From positions 1 to 41,739 of the forward strand of contig CAZOKW010000004.1 in assembly GCA_964580765.1 (NCBI GenBank): a DNA stretch of 41,739 nucleotides. The letters run 5' to 3'. Positions 5,576 to 41,077 of this stretch are shown piece by piece. This DNA is from an uncultured Candidatus Saccharibacteria bacterium. GTDB lineage: Bacteria; Patescibacteriota; Minisyncoccia; 2-02-FULL-40-12; IGHO2-12-FULL-4. The stretch's first letter is position 1, and each line of letters begins with the position of its first letter. Under the pieces are notes generated by a model. It ran no database searches, had not been told where the DNA came from, and saw only the letters and a program-made list of their open reading frames with translations. Position numbers and translations under genes: made by a program.

Positions 5576-5603
5576 GGTATTTTATATCAAATTATATCTG
5601 TTC

Positions 5604-5824
5604 GGCTTGATGCATAAGCGTTCCTTCAGGTCGTTCCGCCGCTTTCCAGCGAGCGGCTCCACTCGCGATGAAGCTGTGGATTCGGAAAGAGTCAAAGAAA
5701 TATTATACTCTTTCCGACCCAGGAACTGCCTTTTCCATCTTATGCTTAGCATGGGCTGGAAAAGGCAGTTCCTAAGCAATCCACAACTTCAGAGCGTCCT
5801 TCAGGGATGCATATGCATCAAGCC
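5604..5824. repeat. Branched structured element, family I copy B
   Basis: Closing arms GGCTTGATGCATA/TATGCATCAAGCC; GCCGCT-ttccagcg-AGCGGC hairpin; TCGGAAAGAGT/ACTCTTTCCGA; perfect 17-bp AGGAACTGCCTTTTCCA/TGGAAAAGGCAGTTCCT. Confidence 0.8.
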
Positions 5825-5843
5825 CCCATGATTAAATTTGCAA

Positions 5844-6007
5844 GCAGACTAAAGATATTGTTGCCTCAGAGGCGCTGTGGACTGTGTGATTGCATGGTTT
5901 GGACGAAGTATAATTTTTTCACTTCGGACAAAATCCACAGGCCACGGCGAGCGTAGCGAATCGCTGGTGAGCAAGCGTCCGAAGAGGCAATAGTATCTTT
6001 GGTCTGC
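5844..6007. repeat. Branched structured element, family I copy C (inverted relative to A/B)
   Basis: 24-bp closing stem (5844-5867/5984-6007, three G-T wobbles); reverse complement reads TCGGACGC..CCAGCGA..CTCGC..CTGTGGATT..CCACAG like A. Confidence 0.7.
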
Positions 6008-6056
6008 CGTAGAAAGGTTTTAAATAAAATGCCAACATACTTAACTAAATAAGTCT

Positions 6057-13698: not shown

Positions 13699-14532
13699 TT
13701 AAACATTTTTAATCTCCAGTTTAGCTTTTTGGTATTGCTCATCGTTCATCGGCAGGTAGTGCCACTCCAAGCGGTCTTCCATGAAAGATACACCATGACC
13801 GAGTTTGGTTTTAGCGATGAGGCACTTCGGTTGATTTGAATTACTTTTATCCAAGTCGCCAAAGGCGTTGTGTAAATCATCAAAATTATTGCCATCTCTA
13901 GTCACGGCTACGGTAAAATTAAAAGAAGCCCATTTTTGTTTAAGCGGTTCCAGGTTGAGCACTTCTTTTGTTTTTCCCAAGGCCTGCATCTCGTTATTAT
14001 CGATAATGACAGTTAGATTGCCAAGGCCATGATGTCCGGCAAAAAGGGCGGCTTCCCAAGTGGAACCCTCATTGCAGTCGCCGTCAGAGAGAACGCAGTA
14101 AACCTGGAATTTTTTACGGCTGAATCTGGCCGACAGAGCAATGCCCGCCGCCAAGGATAAACCGTGGCCTAAACTGCCGGTCCCAAAAGTTATCCCGTTT
14201 AATTTTCCGGCTGGCGGGTGGGCGGCCAGTAGAGTGCCATCTCTGTAATATGTTTCCAGATATTGTTCGGGAAACAGACCCTTTTTGGCTAAGATGGTGT
14301 AAAGAGCCGAGGCGGCGTGCCCCTTGGATAAAATAAAATGGTCCGCCGATTTCATTTTAAAAAAATGCGAGTAAATCAAAATATCCAGACAGGAAAGAGA
14401 AGAGCCGATATGTCCGGCCTTGGCTTTTTTATGCAAATCCAAAATTTTACCGGCGCAGACGCGCTTAAGTTCGTAAAATTTTTTATTTTTTCCGGCGATA
14501 GATGGTGACTCTTTTAAATTCATCTTGTTCAA
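13699..14532 (-). CDS. Transketolase-like protein, N-terminal (ThDP-binding) subunit
   Basis: GHIGSSLS, FILSKGH, TGSLGHGL, SDGDCNEG..WEA, D.N..Q, WHY. Confidence 0.9.
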   Translation of the reverse strand: MNKMNLKESPSIAGKNKKFYELKRVCAGKILDLHKKAKAGHIGSSLSCLDILIYSHFFKMKSADHFILSKGHAASALYTILAKKGLFPEQYLETYYRDGTLLAAHPPAGKLNGITFGTGSLGHGLSLAAGIALSARFSRKKFQVYCVLSDGDCNEGSTWEAALFAGHHGLGNLTVIIDNNEMQALGKTKEVLNLEPLKQKWASFNFTVAVTRDGNNFDDLHNAFGDLDKSNSNQPKCLIAKTKLGHGVSFMEDRLEWHYLPMNDEQYQKAKLEIKNV

Positions 14533-16126
14533 TTATGGCGGCTACTTCAAATTTAGACTGCAAATTGTTTTCAATATAAAGATAAATTTCGTTTGTTTTG
14601 TCTTCTCTTAAACCGCTTAAGGCGTTTAGGTTTGGGTAGTCAATGAGCTGATAGGCCGTATTAACTTTGGCCAGATTGGCCAGCAAATTTTCCTGGTACT
14701 TTTCGCCAAAGAGTTTTTGGCCGGAATACAAAAATATGTCATTATTTTGGCCCATGAACGGTTTATAGTCGACCAGTCGCGCTATGGTGGGATAGGCCCC
14801 CAAAACAAGGACCGGATCCTTGGTTTTTATCAAGGTTTTTAATTTATCCGCCACCCTTTCCGGGAAGGAGACCACTTCTTGACTTCCCCGGTCAATTATG
14901 TGGATTTTAATCTCTTTTTTAGCAAAGTCAATCGCCTGGGGGAGGAGGAATATGGCTATAAAAAGACCTGCCCACCAATTTCTTAAGTATTTCTGGAGTC
15001 CGATATTGTTCAGGACAAGAATTAATATAAAAAAGTATAAAGTAAAAAAGGGCGCCTCATGGCTTTTTGCTCCCGAACCAGTGGTGAGGACCGTGGCTAC
15101 GGCCATGAATCCAACCAGCCAGACAAAAAGAACTATTTTTTTGTTTTGCTGGTAAAAAAATCGGAGCTTTGAACCGATGGCTTGGGCCGAATCCGAAAAA
15201 AAGAAAACAGCCATGCTGGCGGCGGATAGGAGGTAGGTTGTCCAATATAGCGGCAAAAATATATTTCTAATGGCGGGCAGTCCCCAGTATAAGGTGGTAA
15301 TGAATTTTTTAGTTATTCTTAACGGCTCGGCTTTATAAATGATGGGGGGTATTTCTATCAGCCATTTTTTTAACAATGAGAGATAGCCAACACCGGGTAC
15401 ATAAAAAATCCACAGAGCCAAAACAGCGAACAGGCCAAACCCGGCCAGCCAAGCCACTACCACTTGGAAACGGGGTTTCCAAGTGGTAGTGGCTAAAGTG
15501 GCGGCCTGCCCTAGCCGTTTTTTATAAAGCCAATAAATAACGAATCCCCCGATGATTAGGGGAACGGCTATGTGGACTTGCCGTCCAATAAAAGCCGTTG
15601 CCCATAAAATTCCCGAGAAGACGGAATAGAGTATGATTTTTTTGGAAGAAAGCCGGATTCGATCGGCGATGATTACGGAAAATAAAAGAAATAAGCTGAT
15701 CAGTTCAAGCGTGTGATAAAAAAGCGGAACGGCAATATCCCGGCCTGGGTCAAATTGTCTGGAAGAAATGGAAACAAAAACTAAAAGCACTGCCAGCCAA
15801 GATTTTGGTAGTGAGCGGGTTAGGGAAAAGGAGATAAAATAAAGAGCTAAGCAGTAAAAGGAGTAAACAGAAAAAAGCATAAAAAACCGATTGGTAAAAT
15901 CGCTGAACCCCATTTTATAAATGGGCGAAAATAGTAAGGGGAATAAAGGTGTGCGATAATCAAAAAAGTCGATCAAAAACTTTCCTCCTCTGGAGATGAG
16001 AGCAGAGAGGTCCATATAAAAAGAATTATCAGTGCCGATAGGCAAGGTTTTGTCAAAATAAAAAACCACGCCAATAATAAACAAAATCAGACCGGGCCAG
16101 ATAACATGGGAATACCATTTCTTCAT
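14483..16126 (-). CDS. Multi-pass membrane protein, probable GT-C fold (ArnT/PMT-like) glycosyltransferase
   Basis: First TM followed by D..FY...G....DFFD..TP loop typical of GT-C; many TM helices and a C-terminal soluble domain; co-transcribed with GtrB-like GT2. Confidence 0.6.
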   Translation of the reverse strand: MKKWYSHVIWPGLILFIIGVVFYFDKTLPIGTDNSFYMDLSALISRGGKFLIDFFDYRTPLFPLLFSPIYKMGFSDFTNRFFMLFSVYSFYCLALYFISFSLTRSLPKSWLAVLLVFVSISSRQFDPGRDIAVPLFYHTLELISLFLLFSVIIADRIRLSSKKIILYSVFSGILWATAFIGRQVHIAVPLIIGGFVIYWLYKKRLGQAATLATTTWKPRFQVVVAWLAGFGLFAVLALWIFYVPGVGYLSLLKKWLIEIPPIIYKAEPLRITKKFITTLYWGLPAIRNIFLPLYWTTYLLSAASMAVFFFSDSAQAIGSKLRFFYQQNKKIVLFVWLVGFMAVATVLTTGSGAKSHEAPFFTLYFFILILVLNNIGLQKYLRNWWAGLFIAIFLLPQAIDFAKKEIKIHIIDRGSQEVVSFPERVADKLKTLIKTKDPVLVLGAYPTIARLVDYKPFMGQNNDIFLYSGQKLFGEKYQENLLANLAKVNTAYQLIDYPNLNALSGLREDKTNEIYLYIENNLQSKFEVAAIIEQDEFKRVTIYRRKK

Positions 16127-16166: not shown

Positions 16167-16229
16167 ACCCCACACATAACTAGTGGTATTTTAAAAGTCC
16201 GAAGTGTTTTCTCTAGTTATGTGTGGGGT
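16167..16229. repeat. 17-bp perfect inverted repeat in a divergent promoter region
   Basis: ACCCCACACATAACTAG (16167-16183) / CTAGTTATGTGTGGGGT (16213-16229), 29-bp spacer. Confidence 0.85.
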
Positions 16230-33689: not shown

Positions 33690-35621
33690 ATGACAATGCT
33701 CCAGAAAAAACTTCTAGGTTCAGTCGCAGCGGTATTATTCACGATACCGCTTTTTGTTTACCCCGAGTTATATCGAGGGGTTTTCATCCAATCTGCTAAA
33801 GCGGCCACCACGGTAGACGGTTACAGTCCGCAGTCCTTTTTCATCAGCAGTGATTATGAATTCAGCGGCCGCACCCAACTCCAAGCTACTTTACGGGTGG
33901 AAGGGGAAAAGGCCAAGTTTTTTATTGATGACGATTACTGGTTTGCTCGCGATTCTTCGGTTCAACAAGTGATTAGACAGCAAGTGCTCAAACTGGCTGA
34001 AGAATTTGATACGCGAATTTATCCGTTAGAAACCGCTTTCTGGGGACAAGAAAATATTCCCGGTGTAGACAATGATCCAAAAGTGGTAGTGCTATTGGCC
34101 AATCTGATTGATACGGCGGGAGGATATTTTGATACCGCCCATCAATTTTCCAAAACAAAATTTCCGGATTCCAATGAAAAAGATATGGTCTATTTAAATA
34201 TCCGGTCTTTGCGTAATGAGAAAAGAGGGTTTGCTTTTTTAGCCCATGAATTTCAACATCTCATCGCTTTAAATCAAAAAAATCTTCTGCGCCGCGCCGA
34301 TGACGACATCTGGTTAAACGAATTGCGTTCGGAATACTCTATCTCCCTGCTTGGTTATAATGATCTCTATGCCGATTCCAATCTCAAAAGAAGGATGATA
34401 TCTTTTTTGGGCGAACCATCGGATAGTTTAACTGAGTGGGGCAATCAAGCGGCCGATTACGCCCAAGTGGTTTTTTTTGGCGAATATTTGACGGAGCATT
34501 TTGGCTCTAATCTTTTGAAACAGTCCTTGCATTCCGGTTTGGATGGTATTGCTTCTTTGGAACAAGTTTTGCGGGATAACGGTTACCAACTTAATTTCGG
34601 AGATGTTTTTTTGCGCTGGTCTGCGGCTAATGTTTTAGGCGATCTTTTGTTGGGCAGCGACTACGGTTATTTCCGGGAAGGATTACGGCAGGAACTGCGC
34701 GTTCCCGCCACCCGTACCATTGCCGGTCTTAGCGAGAATGCCGGTTTTTCCCTGACCGAGGCCTTCAAAGATTGGCAGACCAAATGGATTTGGATTACGG
34801 ATATTTCCAGAGGAACTAAAAATACGCTGAAAATAAATTTTAGCGGAGAGAAGGAGGATTTTTTCCGCGGAACCGTTATTAGTTTTTATCAAGATGGCCG
34901 GCGGGAAGTGAAATTTTTTGATTTAAGCCAGCCGGGACCGGGTGATTTATTTTTCGATTTTAATCTCGGTACGCCCGGACAAGGATTGGAGAAAATAATT
35001 CTTCTTCCGGTGAAAATGGAAAAGAAAAATAACTTTACAGATAAAGAACCTTTGTCTGATTTGACGATTAAACTGGAGAGAGTTTTGTCGGTTTCTTTTC
35101 CTCTGCCAACTCCCACTCCAAATTTGACTCCCATCACTACTCCCAGTCCCGCTATCCAACTAAACATACTTGCAGTTCGGCCGGCTGATTTTGGTTTGCG
35201 GGAGGGCGATTTTATCAGAGCGGAAGGGGATATTGATGTCTATATTATTAATGACTTTGGATTTAAGCGCTTAGTTTTAAATCCGCAGATCTGTCTTTTA
35301 TACGGCCATTTAAGCACCCGCACTGCTCTGCGAAGTACTTCGCTACGCAGCACGAGTGGTTGTTTTGGGGCGGTCAAGGTCGTTTCACCCCAAGTACGGG
35401 ATGCTTTTAAGACCTCTTTGTTTTTTACCGACGGAGAAAATAAAGATGGACGCATTTATTTTTTAGAATTAACCGGAGAGGATAGCGCTGTCTTGCGTTT
35501 TATAAATATGTCCGGAGACGATTTTATTCGGCAAGGCGGAAATTTTTCCTCCGTGTTTCTTTTTAACACTCGCGAAAAAAATACTTACCCCTTAGGAGAG
35601 AACATCAGAAAGCTAAACTAA
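33690..35621 (+). CDS. Secreted/surface zinc metallopeptidase (M30/M6-like HExxH) with Pro/Thr linker
   Basis: N-terminal signal/TM, GYF, AHEFQH zinc motif, WLNE third ligand, PTPTP linker, C-terminal domain. Confidence 0.7.
   Translation: MTMLQKKLLGSVAAVLFTIPLFVYPELYRGVFIQSAKAATTVDGYSPQSFFISSDYEFSGRTQLQATLRVEGEKAKFFIDDDYWFARDSSVQQVIRQQVLKLAEEFDTRIYPLETAFWGQENIPGVDNDPKVVVLLANLIDTAGGYFDTAHQFSKTKFPDSNEKDMVYLNIRSLRNEKRGFAFLAHEFQHLIALNQKNLLRRADDDIWLNELRSEYSISLLGYNDLYADSNLKRRMISFLGEPSDSLTEWGNQAADYAQVVFFGEYLTEHFGSNLLKQSLHSGLDGIASLEQVLRDNGYQLNFGDVFLRWSAANVLGDLLLGSDYGYFREGLRQELRVPATRTIAGLSENAGFSLTEAFKDWQTKWIWITDISRGTKNTLKINFSGEKEDFFRGTVISFYQDGRREVKFFDLSQPGPGDLFFDFNLGTPGQGLEKIILLPVKMEKKNNFTDKEPLSDLTIKLERVLSVSFPLPTPTPNLTPITTPSPAIQLNILAVRPADFGLREGDFIRAEGDIDVYIINDFGFKRLVLNPQICLLYGHLSTRTALRSTSLRSTSGCFGAVKVVSPQVRDAFKTSLFFTDGENKDGRIYFLELTGEDSAVLRFINMSGDDFIRQGGNFSSVFLFNTREKNTYPLGENIRKLN
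35315..35358. repeat. Palindromic insertion inside peptidase CDS
   Basis: CACCCG-ca-CTGC-tct-GCGAAGTACTTCGC-tac-GCAG-ca-CGAGTG. Confidence 0.65.
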
Positions 35622-35722
35622 AACTTTAAAAATAGATTGGAGGCGGAGGGGAACACTTTTTTTGAGCACCGTCGAATAAAAAAGTATGTTCACCGGAGCA
35701 TCCCAAATCTATTTTTAAAGTT
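35622..35722. repeat. Hairpin element family II, copy 1
   Basis: 66-bp core 35638-35703 identical to 36358-36423; outer arms AACTTTAAAAATAGATT/AATCTATTTTTAAAGTT. Confidence 0.9.
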
Positions 35723-35755
35723 ATCAACAAATTTTCTATTGTAATAAAACTTTTG

Positions 35756-35764
35756 TGCTATAAT
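35756..35764 (+). promoter_or_regulatory. Extended -10 promoter
   Basis: TGcTATAAT. Confidence 0.5.
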
Positions 35765-35894
35765 TAAATCAGTTAATTTATTTATTGTAGAAAATAATTG
35801 CAACAGTTTGGTCGGCTGTTGCAAAATTAAGGAGGGATAGCATTTAATTTTTTCTCTGCGAAGATAAAAAATTGAAGGCCTTACCTAATACACG

Positions 35895-35942
35895 ATGGCA
35901 GCCAAGAAAAAAAAAGGTGGAAAGAAGAAAAAGAGAATCTAA
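35895..35942 (+). CDS. Tiny Lys-rich peptide MAAKKKKGGKKKKRI
   Basis: 15-codon ORF between an extended -10 promoter and a strong terminator; not in ORF track. Confidence 0.45.
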   Translation: MAAKKKKGGKKKKRI

Positions 35943-35951
35943 CTTTTTCAC

Positions 35952-35982
35952 AACCCCCCGCAATTGCGGGGGGTTTGATTTT
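35952..35982 (+). terminator. Intrinsic terminator
   Basis: AACCCCCCGC-aatt-GCGGGGGGTT + TGATTTT. Confidence 0.75.
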
Positions 35983-36003
35983 GGGAGTATCTTGGGCTAT
36001 AAT
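35975..36003 (+). promoter_or_regulatory. Leaderless promoter of raiA/hpf
   Basis: TTGATT-17 bp-TATAAT, 7 nt before ATG 36011. Confidence 0.65.
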
Positions 36004-36010
36004 TTTCACT

Positions 36011-36349
36011 ATGAAATATATTCTACAGTCCACGAATACAACCATTTCCGACAGTATCCAGGCTCTGATTGACAGTAAAATTAAAGCCCTGGAACATTTT
36101 ATTTCCCGTTTTGATCCGGAAACGGTTGAAGCCAGAATTGAAGTCGGTAAGCCCTCCCGGCATCACCAGACGGGTCTGGTTTTCTATGCCGAGATCAACT
36201 TAAAAATACCCGGTAAACTTTTACGGGCAGAAGCCACTCATTTGGATTTGTTGTCGGCGGTCAACGAGGCCTTCAAAGAAGTTGAGAGGCAGGTTAAAGA
36301 TTATAAGGAGAAGATGATTACAAAAAATAAACCTCGGAAACAAATATAA
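36011..36349 (+). CDS. raiA: Ribosome hibernation promoting factor / ribosome-associated inhibitor A
   Basis: K...L..F, AEINL.IPG..LRAE, D...A.......ERQ...YK; adjacent to secA. Confidence 0.85.
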   Translation: MKYILQSTNTTISDSIQALIDSKIKALEHFISRFDPETVEARIEVGKPSRHHQTGLVFYAEINLKIPGKLLRAEATHLDLLSAVNEAFKEVERQVKDYKEKMITKNKPRKQI

Positions 36350-36352
36350 AAC

Positions 36353-36429
36353 TGGACTGGAGGCGGAGGGGAACACTTTTTTTGAGCACCGTCGAATAAA
36401 AAAGTATGTTCACCGGAGCATCCAGTCCA
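36353..36429. repeat. Hairpin element family II, copy 2
   Basis: Identical 66-bp core; outer arms TGGACTGGA/TCCAGTCCA. Confidence 0.9.
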
Positions 36430-36435
36430 ATCCTA

Positions 36436-39084
36436 ATGTCATTTCTTACAAAAATTTTTGGTGATGCCAACGAGCGCTATCTGAAGAGCGCTCGTTTACT
36501 AGTGGAGGAGATAAATAAATTTGAATCGCTATTCGAAAAGTTTTCCGGTGAGGAAATTAAAAACAAGACCGCTGATTTTAAAAAAAGAATTGTTGAAGGC
36601 GAGCATCTTGATCAAATTCTTCCCGAGGCTTTCGCTTTGGCGCGTGAAGCGGCTAAACGTACTGTCCGACAGCGTCATTATGATGTTCAGATCATCGGAG
36701 GAATTATTTTACATCGTGGTAATATCGCCGAGATGAAAACAGGAGAAGGAAAAACTCTTACCGCTACTTTGCCGGTTTATCTTAATGCTTTAACCGGCCA
36801 AGGCGTGCATGTGGTGACCGTTAATGACTACCTCTCCCGGCGCGATACGGCCTGGATGGGACAAGTTTACGATCTATTGGGGTTGTCCGTAGCCTGTCTA
36901 AACCATGATTCCAGTTATATTTACGACTCCGCGCATATCAACAAAGAGAAAGAAGAAGAGTTGGATAAAATACGGGACGAGCTTGGTAGTTTCAAAATAG
37001 CGCATGAGTTTTTGCGCCCAATTAGCCGACGGGAAGCGTATTCGGCGGATATTACTTATGGAACGAATAACGAATTCGGTTTTGATTATTTGCGGGATAA
37101 CATGGTTTTCAGTCAGGAGCAAAAAGTGCAGGCCAAAGGACACAACTTTTCCATTGTTGATGAAGTGGACTCAATTTTAATTGATGAAGCCCGTACGCCA
37201 TTGATTATTTCCAGTCCGGACAGCGACTCTACCAAATTATACGAGACATTTTCCAAAATAGTTCCACACCTTAAAGAAAACGAGGACTACAATGTAGATG
37301 AAAAACTCAAAGCGGTGACTCTGACGGAGAAAGGGATTGAAAGAGTGGAAAAGCAATTGGGGGTGGGTAATATTTATGAAGAAGGCGGAGTGCGCTATGT
37401 GCACCATCTGGAGCAGGCCTTGCGGGCGCAGGTTCTTTTTAAACTGGACCGGGATTATATAGTAAAGAATGGCGAGGTAATAATTGTGGACGAATTTACC
37501 GGCCGTTTAATGCCGGGCCGGCGCTGGTCCGATGGGTTGCACCAGGCGGTGGAAGCCAAAGAAGCCGTTTCAGTGCAGAAAGAGTCGCGCACCATGGCTA
37601 CCATTACTTTTCAAAATTATTTCCGTCTTTATAAAAAACTTTCCGGCATGACCGGCACGGCCGCTACTTCGGCGGAAGAATTTCACAAGGTCTACAATCT
37701 TGACGCGTTTATTGTGCCTCCGAATAAGTCATTTCAGAGAAAGGACCTATCGGATAGTATTTACAAAACAGAGGCAGGGAAATTCCGCTCTATTGTCAAG
37801 GAGATCAAACAGCGTCATGAACAAGGGCAACCTGTATTGGTTGGTACGGTTTCCATCGAAAAAAATGAGTTGTTGGCTAAAATGCTGGAGAGAGAAGGAG
37901 TCAAGCATCATATTTTAAATGCTAAAAATCATGAACGAGAAGCGGAAATTATCGCCCAAGCGGGAAAATTCGGCGCGGTGACGGTGGCGACCAACATGGC
38001 TGGAAGAGGGGTGGACATAATTTTGGGAGGGGCGCCGACTGATGCCCAAGAAGCAGAAAGAGTGTGTCAGGTAGGCGGGTTGCATGTTGTTGGTACAGAG
38101 CGGCACGAAGCGCGGCGGATTGATAACCAGCTTCGCGGACGGGCCGGCCGTCAGGGCGACCCTGGCTCTTCGCAATTTTTTGTTTCCACGGAAGATGAGC
38201 TGGCCAGAGTGTTTGGCGGCGATCGTTTGAAAAATCTGATGGATCGTCTGGGGGTGGGTGAAGATGATGCCATTGAGAACCGTTTCGTTTCCAAGGCCAT
38301 CGAGCAGGCGCAGGCCAAAATAGAAGGATTCCATTTTGATTCGCGCAAATATGTTTTGGAATATGACGATGTGATGAACCGCCACCGGACGGCCATTTAC
38401 GGTTTGCGTAACAAAATTTTATCCATGTCGGATAATCGGGAACTTTTTTCGGAGTATTTTGACTGGATAACTGGCAAATTAATTGAAGCCCACACTCAAA
38501 GTGTAACCGGCGAGTGGGGTACAGAAGAAATTGCTGAAACAATCAAAACTCTGACGGTCAGTGAAGAGAGTTTGTATCCCAAACTTATGGAGATTTCAAA
38601 ATCAGGCGACCGCACAATTTTAAAAACTTTTTTGCTTGATTTTATTTCCAAAGAACTGGAGAAAAAAGAGAAAGAACTGGGGGCAGAGCAGATGCGCCGT
38701 TTGGAGAATCTGGTTTTACTGCGGGTAATTGATGAACTGTGGGTTGACCATTTGGAAGCGATGGAATATTTGCGGGAATCAGTCCGTTTGAGGGCTTACG
38801 GCCAGCGCGATCCCTTAGTAGAATACAAAATCGAAGGCCAAAGAATGTTTGAGGAACTTTTGCAGAATGTCAAAATGCAAGCCGTCAATTTAATTTTCAA
38901 AGTCAGTTTTATTCAACAGCCTAAAGCGGTTAATATCCAAGAAGGCCGGGATAATTCTTTGACTGAAAGTTCCGAATCAGAGGAAAAATATCCCGCAGCG
39001 GATTTGTCAGAACCGAAAATTGGCCGAAATAACCCCTGTCCCTGCGGTTCCGGAAAAAAGTATAAAAAATGCCATGGGAAGTAG
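36436..39084 (+). CDS. secA: Preprotein translocase subunit SecA
   Basis: [60 protein letters not shown]-terminal [17 protein letters not shown]. Confidence 0.98.
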
Positions 39085-40594: not shown

Positions 40595-41077
40595 ATGGAT
40601 CACGTGGCTATAATGAAAAAATCCTGGGGACTGACAGAAAAGATTTTGAGCGGAGAAAAAAAGATCGAGTCGCGCTGGTACATGGCCAGATCTGCTCCTT
40701 GGAATAGAATCAAAGCCGGAGAAACGGTTTATTTCAAAAACTCCGGAGAGCCAGTGACTATAAAAGCGACAGTGGCAAAGGTTCTTCAATTTTCCGATTT
40801 GAATCAGGACAAGGTTTTGGAGATTTTAAAAAAATATGGAAAAGATATCGGCATCTCGAGAGCCCTCGGGGGACATAGTTTTTGTCTGCAAGTTTTCGCA
40901 AAAACTGTCCCCACTCGGTCTCTGGATGCTTTACATCTTTTTAAAAACAAGAAATACTGCCTTTTGATATTTTTAAAAAATCCCGTTAAGATTAAACCAT
41001 TCCAGATTGATAAAAAAGGTTTTGGAATGATGTCGGCTTGGATTTCGGTTGATTCAATAAATAAAATAAAAAAATAA
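40595..41077 (+). CDS. ASCH/PUA-like domain protein containing an in-frame hairpin insertion
   Basis: H.AI....I.SG.K.IESR......P...I..G..V.FK motif. Confidence 0.75.
   Translation: MDHVAIMKKSWGLTEKILSGEKKIESRWYMARSAPWNRIKAGETVYFKNSGEPVTIKATVAKVLQFSDLNQDKVLEILKKYGKDIGISRALGGHSFCLQVFAKTVPTRSLDALHLFKNKKYCLLIFLKNPVKIKPFQIDKKGFGMMSAWISVDSINKIKK
40851..40929. repeat. Hairpin element family II, diverged inverted copy inside ASCH CDS
   Basis: GCATC/GATGC, GGGGACA/TGTCCCC, AGTTTTTG/CAAAAACT stems; reverse complement parallels the 66-bp repeat. Confidence 0.65.

Follow-up and report, generated by a model that had tools for sequence, protein, structure and literature searches.

Why should a ribosome-hibernation gene stand between two identical hairpin-forming repeats, each of them closed by a perfect stem that the other lacks? 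The question is raised by a stretch of 41,739 nucleotides, called the window below (positions 1 to 41,739 of contig CAZOKW010000004.1, assembly GCA_964580765.1), from an uncultured Candidatus Saccharibacteria bacterium of the Patescibacteriota. According to Pfam annotation, its genes run from a chromosomal polysaccharide-synthesis region to a 643-aa open reading frame (ORF) for a secreted protein, copy 1 of a 66-bp repeat, a short unit, raiA (hpf), copy 2 of the repeat and finally secA (Table 1). [quoted passage not shown] The kind is thus already known, while the family and its host are new within the searches made here.

The two cores agree at 66/66 positions and start 720 bp apart, in a common orientation and bracketing one raiA unit. 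Copy 1 comes directly after the TAA of the 643-aa ORF (35619-35621) and copy 2 after the TAA of raiA (36347-36349). A preliminary description, made from the letters of this DNA alone, had singled out this pair, and direct comparison confirms the length, the full identity, the spacing and the position after stop codons that it gave. These are the only identical copies of the core in the window: a 42-nt piece of it has two matches there at up to three mismatches, a number reached in none of 100 shuffles. The core folds with outer pairs GGA/TCC, GC/GC and GG/CC, and then GAACAC followed by a T-run pairs with an A-run, G, TA and TGTTC, the TA staying unpaired; the extrahelical TA announced beforehand is therefore recovered by folding. 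The ends of the core are imperfectly complementary (12/18 by eye, 21 pairs in the fold), and no sharp terminal repeat can be separated from the hairpin.

How far does the copied unit reach? A MAFFT alignment suggested a longer duplication, including a remnant resembling the start of secA after copy 1. We rejected this extension because the flanks align no better than shuffled sequence: among 2000 dinucleotide shuffles, the observed local-alignment score was reached by 439, 528, 550 and 769 in the four tests (p of about 0.2-0.4). Hence, the copied unit is 66 bp, give or take one base, and the arms around it are truly copy-specific. Complete identity beside unrelated flanks also implies recent copying rather than long conservation. 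Direct duplication of the target was found neither at copy 1 (…AGAT / CAAAT…) nor at copy 2 (…TGGAC / AGTCC…), where the flanks are inverted instead.

These inverted flanks close the two hairpins. In copy 1 the closing stem has 17/17 Watson-Crick pairs and a 2-nt bulge (CA) on its 3' side. In copy 2 the pairing joins 36353-36361 with 36421-36429, i.e. 9 bp, of which six pairs (TGGACT/AGTCCA) lie outside GGAGG...CATCC. The perfect copy-specific arms of 17 and 9 bp in the preliminary description are accordingly present, with the precision that in copy 2 three of the nine pairs are the core's own GGA/TCC. We scanned the whole window for flanks 64 nt apart, permitting an offset of 0-2 nt, and found pairing of at least 6 bp at 64 of 41,615 positions (0.15%) and pairing of at least 12 bp at none. 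The arms of copies 1 and 2 are far beyond chance, and it is real as well as unusual that they are perfect and specific to each copy. G-T is absent from the 17 + 6 arm pairs, which are all Watson-Crick; this points to an origin at the DNA level rather than to selection at the RNA level. Taken whole, either unit forms a single long, imperfect hairpin, with z-scores for copy 1 and copy 2 of -6.3 and -4.5 as RNA and of -7.2 and -5.1 as DNA. The inner six base pairs of the arms (TAGATT/AATCTA and TGGACT/AGTCCA) differ by two symmetric changes. We considered them as covariation or as the consensus of a palindromic target, and set both ideas aside, since 4/6 matches between two copies are too little.

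Is the repeat confined to these two spacers? A covariance model built from the two cores and run unfiltered over the window returned, beyond copies 1 and 2, a single further match on the minus strand, inside an ASCH-like gene. A scan by sequence only also puts this third copy first among non-self matches, with a score of 39 against at most 32 elsewhere; the reverse strands of copies 1 and 2 score 38 and 36. It has 38/66 positions identical to the core (58%). A structure-fitted alignment gives 100% pairing and six double (compensatory) changes. As the alignment was fitted to the structure, these six pairs show only that the hairpins have the same shape.

The protein encoded by the ASCH-like gene bears on the history of this third site. 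We took its 120 best homologues; anchoring on both flanks of the site succeeded for 110 and failed for 10. Among the former, 105 have 9-14 residues at the site (95 exactly 14) and four others have 29-42. The window's protein has 31, which is 17 more than the mode, and its 22 extra-looking residues are encoded by 40856-40921, at most 4 nt from the model match. The homologue P0142 is empty at the site. The shortness of 105/110 homologues argues that the third-copy hairpin is an insertion. As far as this protein comparison goes, it is an in-frame palindromic insertion in a protein gene whose homologues are mostly empty, as in Rickettsia palindromic elements. The view of the 66-bp unit as an inserted repeat, which the preliminary description had put forward, is thus strengthened from four sides: sharp borders, unrelated flanks, the lack of a visible direct target duplication at copies 1 and 2, and a diverged relative set in frame in a gene that is without it in nearly all anchored homologues.

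Four relatives of the ASCH protein (P0122, P0123, P0125 and P0131) carry inserts of differing length and partly differing sequence at the same loop. Three of them have K-T-V-P-T-R…S-L-D in common with the window, and the insert of P0131 is unrelated. The site seems to be either a hot spot or the seat of an old, fast-evolving insert. An AlphaFold model of the window's protein, to be given little weight for its low confidence (mean pLDDT 50.5), has the insert in coil between two helices.

The third copy also has an outer stem: its hairpin extends beyond the core, GAAAAGAT pairing with ATCTTTTT, and GGCATCT with GGATGCT. These flanks are coding, and many of their residues recur in empty homologues. 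On the left side the commonest anchors there are YGKDDGI and similar, and on the right D and L-F recur (…VDFFNLFKK in P0124), the commonest endings being F-E-[LM]-F-K-N. If codon use was similar, the complementary flanks largely pre-dated the insert. This result bears on the mechanism proposed in the preliminary description, in which the insertion itself generates an inverted duplication of the target DNA. At the third copy the evidence leans against that proposal, much of both outer arms being conserved in empty homologues (at the protein level, at a single site and around a diverged copy); the preliminary description had itself counted arms already in place at empty sites as contrary evidence.

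Palindromes are abundant in this DNA at large. The window contains 13 perfect inverted repeats with arms of at least 11 and loops of up to 120, when 30 dinucleotide shuffles contain a mean of 2.0 and a maximum of 5. Two stretches stand out. The first, 15452-15494, has perfect arms of 20 bp around a loop of 3 nt (DNA fold z -9.3) and lies within a 547-aa ORF (14483-16126, minus strand, no Pfam family). It resembles the expected empty site of copy 1, and may be either an unoccupied target or a further palindrome inserted in frame. The second, 16167-16229, is a perfect hairpin with 17-bp arms and a 29-nt loop between two divergent genes, where it immediately precedes a promoter-like TTGACA…TATAAA; it could be an operator, or else one more palindromic unit. 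The core of the 66-bp family is absent from both. Hence, the window has long perfect palindromes that do not depend on the 66-bp unit; these core-less ones could serve it as targets, or could have come from the same process of stem formation.

How, then, did each copy acquire its own arms? Insertion at the centre of pre-existing inverted repeats is the most likely reading, although we hold it tentatively. It is based on the third copy, on the core-less palindromes and on the precedent of several insertion sequence (IS) elements, which the relevant part of PMC1525189 presents as inserting specifically into REP sequences. Under this reading, the 66-bp unit would be a small, non-autonomous hairpin-forming repeat whose recent copies occupy the spacers before and after a native hpf (raiA) unit that lies upstream of secA, with an older relative sitting in frame in the ASCH gene. 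An enzyme encoded elsewhere would move it, probably as a folded single strand, and it would land at the centre of short inverted repeats already in place, i.e. at the tips of hairpins or cruciforms. Each copy would then cap a longer hairpin, with local DNA as the lower stem. Landing at such a centre would leave copy-specific arms and no direct target duplication. If the arms did pre-exist, the copies would point to hairpin tips as the target of an enzyme. In RNA, the hairpins would serve as stem-loops, at a 3' end after the 643-aa gene or between the cistrons of raiA and secA. REP sequences have been reported as 3'-end or intercistronic stem-loops in RNA, and by this analogy such a role is plausible here. 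The hairpin directly before secA may set the raiA:secA expression ratio, and recombination between the 66-bp direct repeats could remove hpf.

Several observations weigh against insertion into pre-existing palindromes, and this reading must be taken with care. The window offers just two identical copies and one diverged copy, whose kinship to the core rests on 58% identity and a common architecture. No relative came out of a scan of genome contigs (73 pattern loci, see below), and the window holds neither a transposase nor a recombinase. For copy 1, the pre-existing site would have to be a perfect 34-bp A+T-rich palindrome right after a stop codon, different from a canonical terminator, which would be odd. 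The stem of the third copy gains two pairs from an Ala codon, GCT, at a place where Phe prevails among empty homologues, and from the sequences this looks like a better fit to remodelling of the flank toward complementarity than to simple insertion. Finally, the argument drawn from the third copy assumes that the ancestral codons were the same, and A+T-rich Lys and Phe codons pair easily by chance.

A second reading follows closely in probability: the same repeat was inserted and the arms are secondary. Template switching during replication, by fold-back on the nascent or the opposite strand, would copy one flank inverted onto the other side, so that the stem grows outward from its base. The stem would remain perfect, and its arms would be a mutational by-product of hairpins in general, not a mark of the insertion. 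The portions of PMC8794818 and PMC13100816 that concern this process describe template switching as making perfect stems in a single event and repairing existing ones (PMC8794818), and as homogenising and expanding the arms of inverted repeats (PMC13100816). The arms have the look of such events, being perfect reverse complements of unequal lengths, with 23/23 pairs Watson-Crick and no mismatch along 17 bp. In copy 1 the arm goes up to the stop codon and no further, as if overwriting coding sequence were selected against, and the two stem pairs added by the Ala codon of the third copy fit the same process. The roughly 6-fold enrichment of perfect inverted repeats in the window is also expected from it, but would fit pre-existing targets equally. 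The unpaired CA of copy 1 and a G-T at the third copy, however, require extra assumptions. Unlike the element families with which we compare the repeat, template switching is a general mutational process; if it made these arms, the locus would show in a clean natural case how perfect stems originate.

A stronger version of this idea is more doubtful. The repeat, or any strong hairpin that it creates, would itself trigger fold-back or template-switch synthesis, writing one flank inverted onto the other, and would behave as a self-growing palindrome at each new site, even within coding sequence as in the ASCH gene. If this is true, the unusual number of perfect palindromes in this genome would have such a self-growing hairpin as a direct source.

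The model of the preliminary description ties the inverted copy to the insertion reaction: one arm would be old and the other would be synthesised at integration. It agrees with the arms that abut the core, with the lack of direct target duplication at copies 1 and 2, and with arm lengths that differ (17 and 6) as variable fold-back synthesis would make them. Yet, both sides of the outer stem of the third copy are conserved coding sequence, perfect palindromes exist in the window without a core, and a new reaction is needed where known processes suffice. To our knowledge, there is no bacterial precedent for an inverted target duplication coupled to insertion. This is a possible explanation but the least economical one, and we give it a low probability.

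That description had also drawn a parallel with hairpins that it called Family I, likewise with unique closing arms. The hairpins at 2612-2657 and 5721-5773 are probably the ones meant; an internal loop is conserved between them, and each is closed by perfect arms of its own. The uniqueness of the arms therefore stands, but it is no signature of insertion: the two hairpins belong to paralogous blocks, between which the arms differ by covariation. This removes a parallel on which the insertion-coupled model could lean. The blocks in question (2470-2700 and 5600-5830) are homologous non-coding stretches of about 230 nt with conserved boxes, downstream of two NeuB paralogues. Between them, 7/40 predicted pairs are changed on both sides, and neither has an Rfam match. 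We regard the NeuB-linked blocks as a candidate structured RNA.

Might the hairpins not be mobile at all? They could be functional elements, such as a protein-binding site, a 3'-end or processing signal in RNA, or an attenuator, with a core fixed by function and a closing stem free to vary, like the P1 of a structured RNA. The common orientation of both copies directly after stop codons, around one unit, and the strength of their folds speak in this direction, as does the fact that no other terminator separates raiA from secA, or the 643-aa gene from the promoter-like site that follows it. But complete identity next to unrelated flanks is the mark of recent copying, and the related copy is found on the opposite strand within coding sequence. 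The 8 terminator-like sites of the window include neither hairpin, and no T-run follows 35722 or 36429, although a canonical terminator-like hairpin is found nearby (35952-35975). With no match in Rfam and no relative in the scan of genome contigs, a purely functional and immobile hairpin is improbable in our view.

A further proposal makes the raiA unit a mobile cassette, integron-like or composite, lying between two recombination sites and excised as a 720-bp circle. The 66-bp direct repeats after stop codons, with their imperfect palindrome and extrahelical bases, do resemble integron attC sites superficially, including in being direct repeats able to excise a circle. Unlike attC sites, they come with no integrase, and the genes they flank are housekeeping genes in conserved order. 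By Pfam, no transposase, integrase or recombinase is found among the 38 + 8 ORFs scanned in the 41.7-kb window, and the attC core-site consensus was not seen by eye at the ends of copy 2. In Bacillus subtilis too, hpf adjoins secA (yvyD-secA), according to the part of PMC3426417 that treats this region, so the raiA unit seems native rather than cargo, and secA is a housekeeping gene, not a cassette member. The excision of a 720-bp circle by recombination between the cores, suggested in the preliminary description, is only a formal possibility. As an account of the locus, the cassette is very improbable. Least credible of all is an artefact in which the assembler made the repeat or the join, given two copies with different and well-formed flanks, a sensible gene order and an identical SecA sequence recorded on 2 contigs (P0001).

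If the repeat was inserted, with which known elements should it be compared? The closest parallel is found in Rickettsia, whose palindromic elements, in the passages of PMC10969869 devoted to them, are short hairpin repeats of about 150 bp, non-coding by themselves, located between genes or in frame within them, and with no obvious target duplication. Our repeat is likewise found both between genes (2 copies) and in frame in a gene (1 copy). It differs in its size (64-66 nt versus about 150 bp), in its host, a free-standing Patescibacteria lineage, and in the 3 copies seen; by size and host, the kind is shared and the family is not. A repeat occurring both between genes and in frame in a gene would extend the Rickettsia-type phenomenon to the Patescibacteria radiation. 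Patescibacteria have small, streamlined genomes. The QMITEs of Coxiella are further examples of intragenic, palindromic MITE-like repeats. We know of no report of copy-specific perfect closing arms as a feature of RPEs.

The likeness to REP, BIME and REPIN sequences lies in an imperfect palindrome placed after genes and extragenic in 2/3 copies. REP sequences also have a conserved 5' tetranucleotide. An IS inserted into a REP palindrome would leave foreign DNA between the halves of a local palindrome, as proposed here; unlike the REP-targeting IS, the inserted DNA is in our case a tiny palindrome itself, and the window has no RAYT or IS gene. With respect to MITEs, the differences are the lack of a direct target-site duplication and a family of two identical copies and one diverged copy in 41.7 kb without transposase.

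Searches for relatives outside the window were negative within their scope. The scan of genome contigs, which used the central stem as a gapped pattern, returned 73 loci; the taxa are unrelated, and the loci share the pattern and nothing else. Their longest blast match to the element is 16 nt and their best model score 25.4 bits; we read them as chance terminator-like hairpins. A blastn of 35600-36450 against plasmid and phage collections gave no match. Rfam 15 gave 0 matches at gathering score; at E of at most 1 it gave 2, both weak, unrelated and located elsewhere in the window. The ORF of 34 aa that covers copy 1 had 4 matches at E of at most 0.001 among 1.84 billion representatives, all of them in unrelated stretches of long proteins, and the 50-aa ORF over copy 2 had no candidate with common words; these protein searches are weak negatives, since ORFs across such copies are rarely called as genes. 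In the literature searched, we found no account of palindromic repeat families in Patescibacteria or the Candidate Phyla Radiation.

Table 1. Coordinates of the repeat copies, of their arms and of neighbouring features in the window.
Feature	Position	Strand	Description
643-aa ORF	33690-35621	+	No Pfam family; upstream of copy 1
Copy 1, 5' arm	35622-35638	+	17 nt; last T is the first base of the common 66 bp; begins one base past the TAA of the 643-aa ORF
Copy 1, core	35638-35703	+	66-bp imperfect palindrome; covariance-model score 101.5 bits
Copy 1, 3' arm	35706-35722	+	17 nt, 100% complementary; preceded by unpaired CA at 35704-35705
Lys-rich 15-codon ORF	35895-35942	+	Within the promoter-to-terminator unit
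Terminator-like hairpin	35952-35975	+	Canonical; 10 pairs, 8 of them G-C; T-rich tail
raiA/hpf	36011-36349	+	Ribosomal_S30AE, E 1.1e-15
Copy 2, 5' arm outside core	36353-36357	+	TGGAC; pairing runs on through T36358 and the core GGA
Copy 2, core	36358-36423	+	Identical to copy 1
Copy 2, 3' arm	36424-36429	+	AGTCCA; ends 6 nt before the secA start codon
secA	36436-39084	+	882 aa; true start
ASCH-like gene	40595-41077	+	160 aa; hosts the third copy; ASCH E 0.042; homologues named ASCH, mostly 141-147 aa
Third copy, left outer partners	40839-40856	+	GAAAAGAT 40839-40846, GGCATCT 40850-40856; codons G-K-D, G-I-(S), conserved in empty homologues
Third copy	40860-40923	-	Same architecture including the TA bulge; in frame in the ASCH gene; 26.8 bits, E 2.6e-5
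Third copy, right outer partners	40924-40942	+	GGATGCT 40924-40930, ATCTTTTT 40935-40942; codons (L)-D-A, (H)-L-F; A at a position that is usually aromatic

An ATG at 36406, inside the core of copy 2, was considered as the start of secA and rejected. Among the 60 best-ranked SecA entries, one (P0024) has no N terminus, and the 59 full-length sequences (the window's own, P0001, and 58 homologues) begin at the residue matching 36436, the extension from 36406 being present in none. Hence, secA does not start at 36406. The names given to the SecA homologues are Paceibacterota, Yanofskybacteria or Patescibacteria; the closest (P0002) is 87% identical, and P0003-P0010 form a group at 83-86%. No Shine-Dalgarno sequence is visible before secA.

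The stretch between copy 1 and raiA (35770-35985) has the features of a transcription unit of its own: a promoter-like TGcTATAAT, a strong hairpin at 35798-35824, the Lys-rich ORF and the terminator, with a fold z of -3.7. No Shine-Dalgarno sequence lies near this 15-codon ORF, and the unit would be either a small RNA or a basic mini-protein beside the ribosome-hibernation gene. Next, at 35975-36003, comes the promoter-like site that scores best in the region (TTGATT, 17 nt, TATAAT; 10/12). It ends 8 nt before the ATG of raiA, which suggests a leaderless or nearly leaderless raiA transcript. The window has no tRNA or tmRNA genes. A 500-nt non-coding gap before the cytidylyltransferase gene contains a long imperfect hairpin (5820-6000), in which about 5846-5870 pairs, by eye, with 5985-6010.

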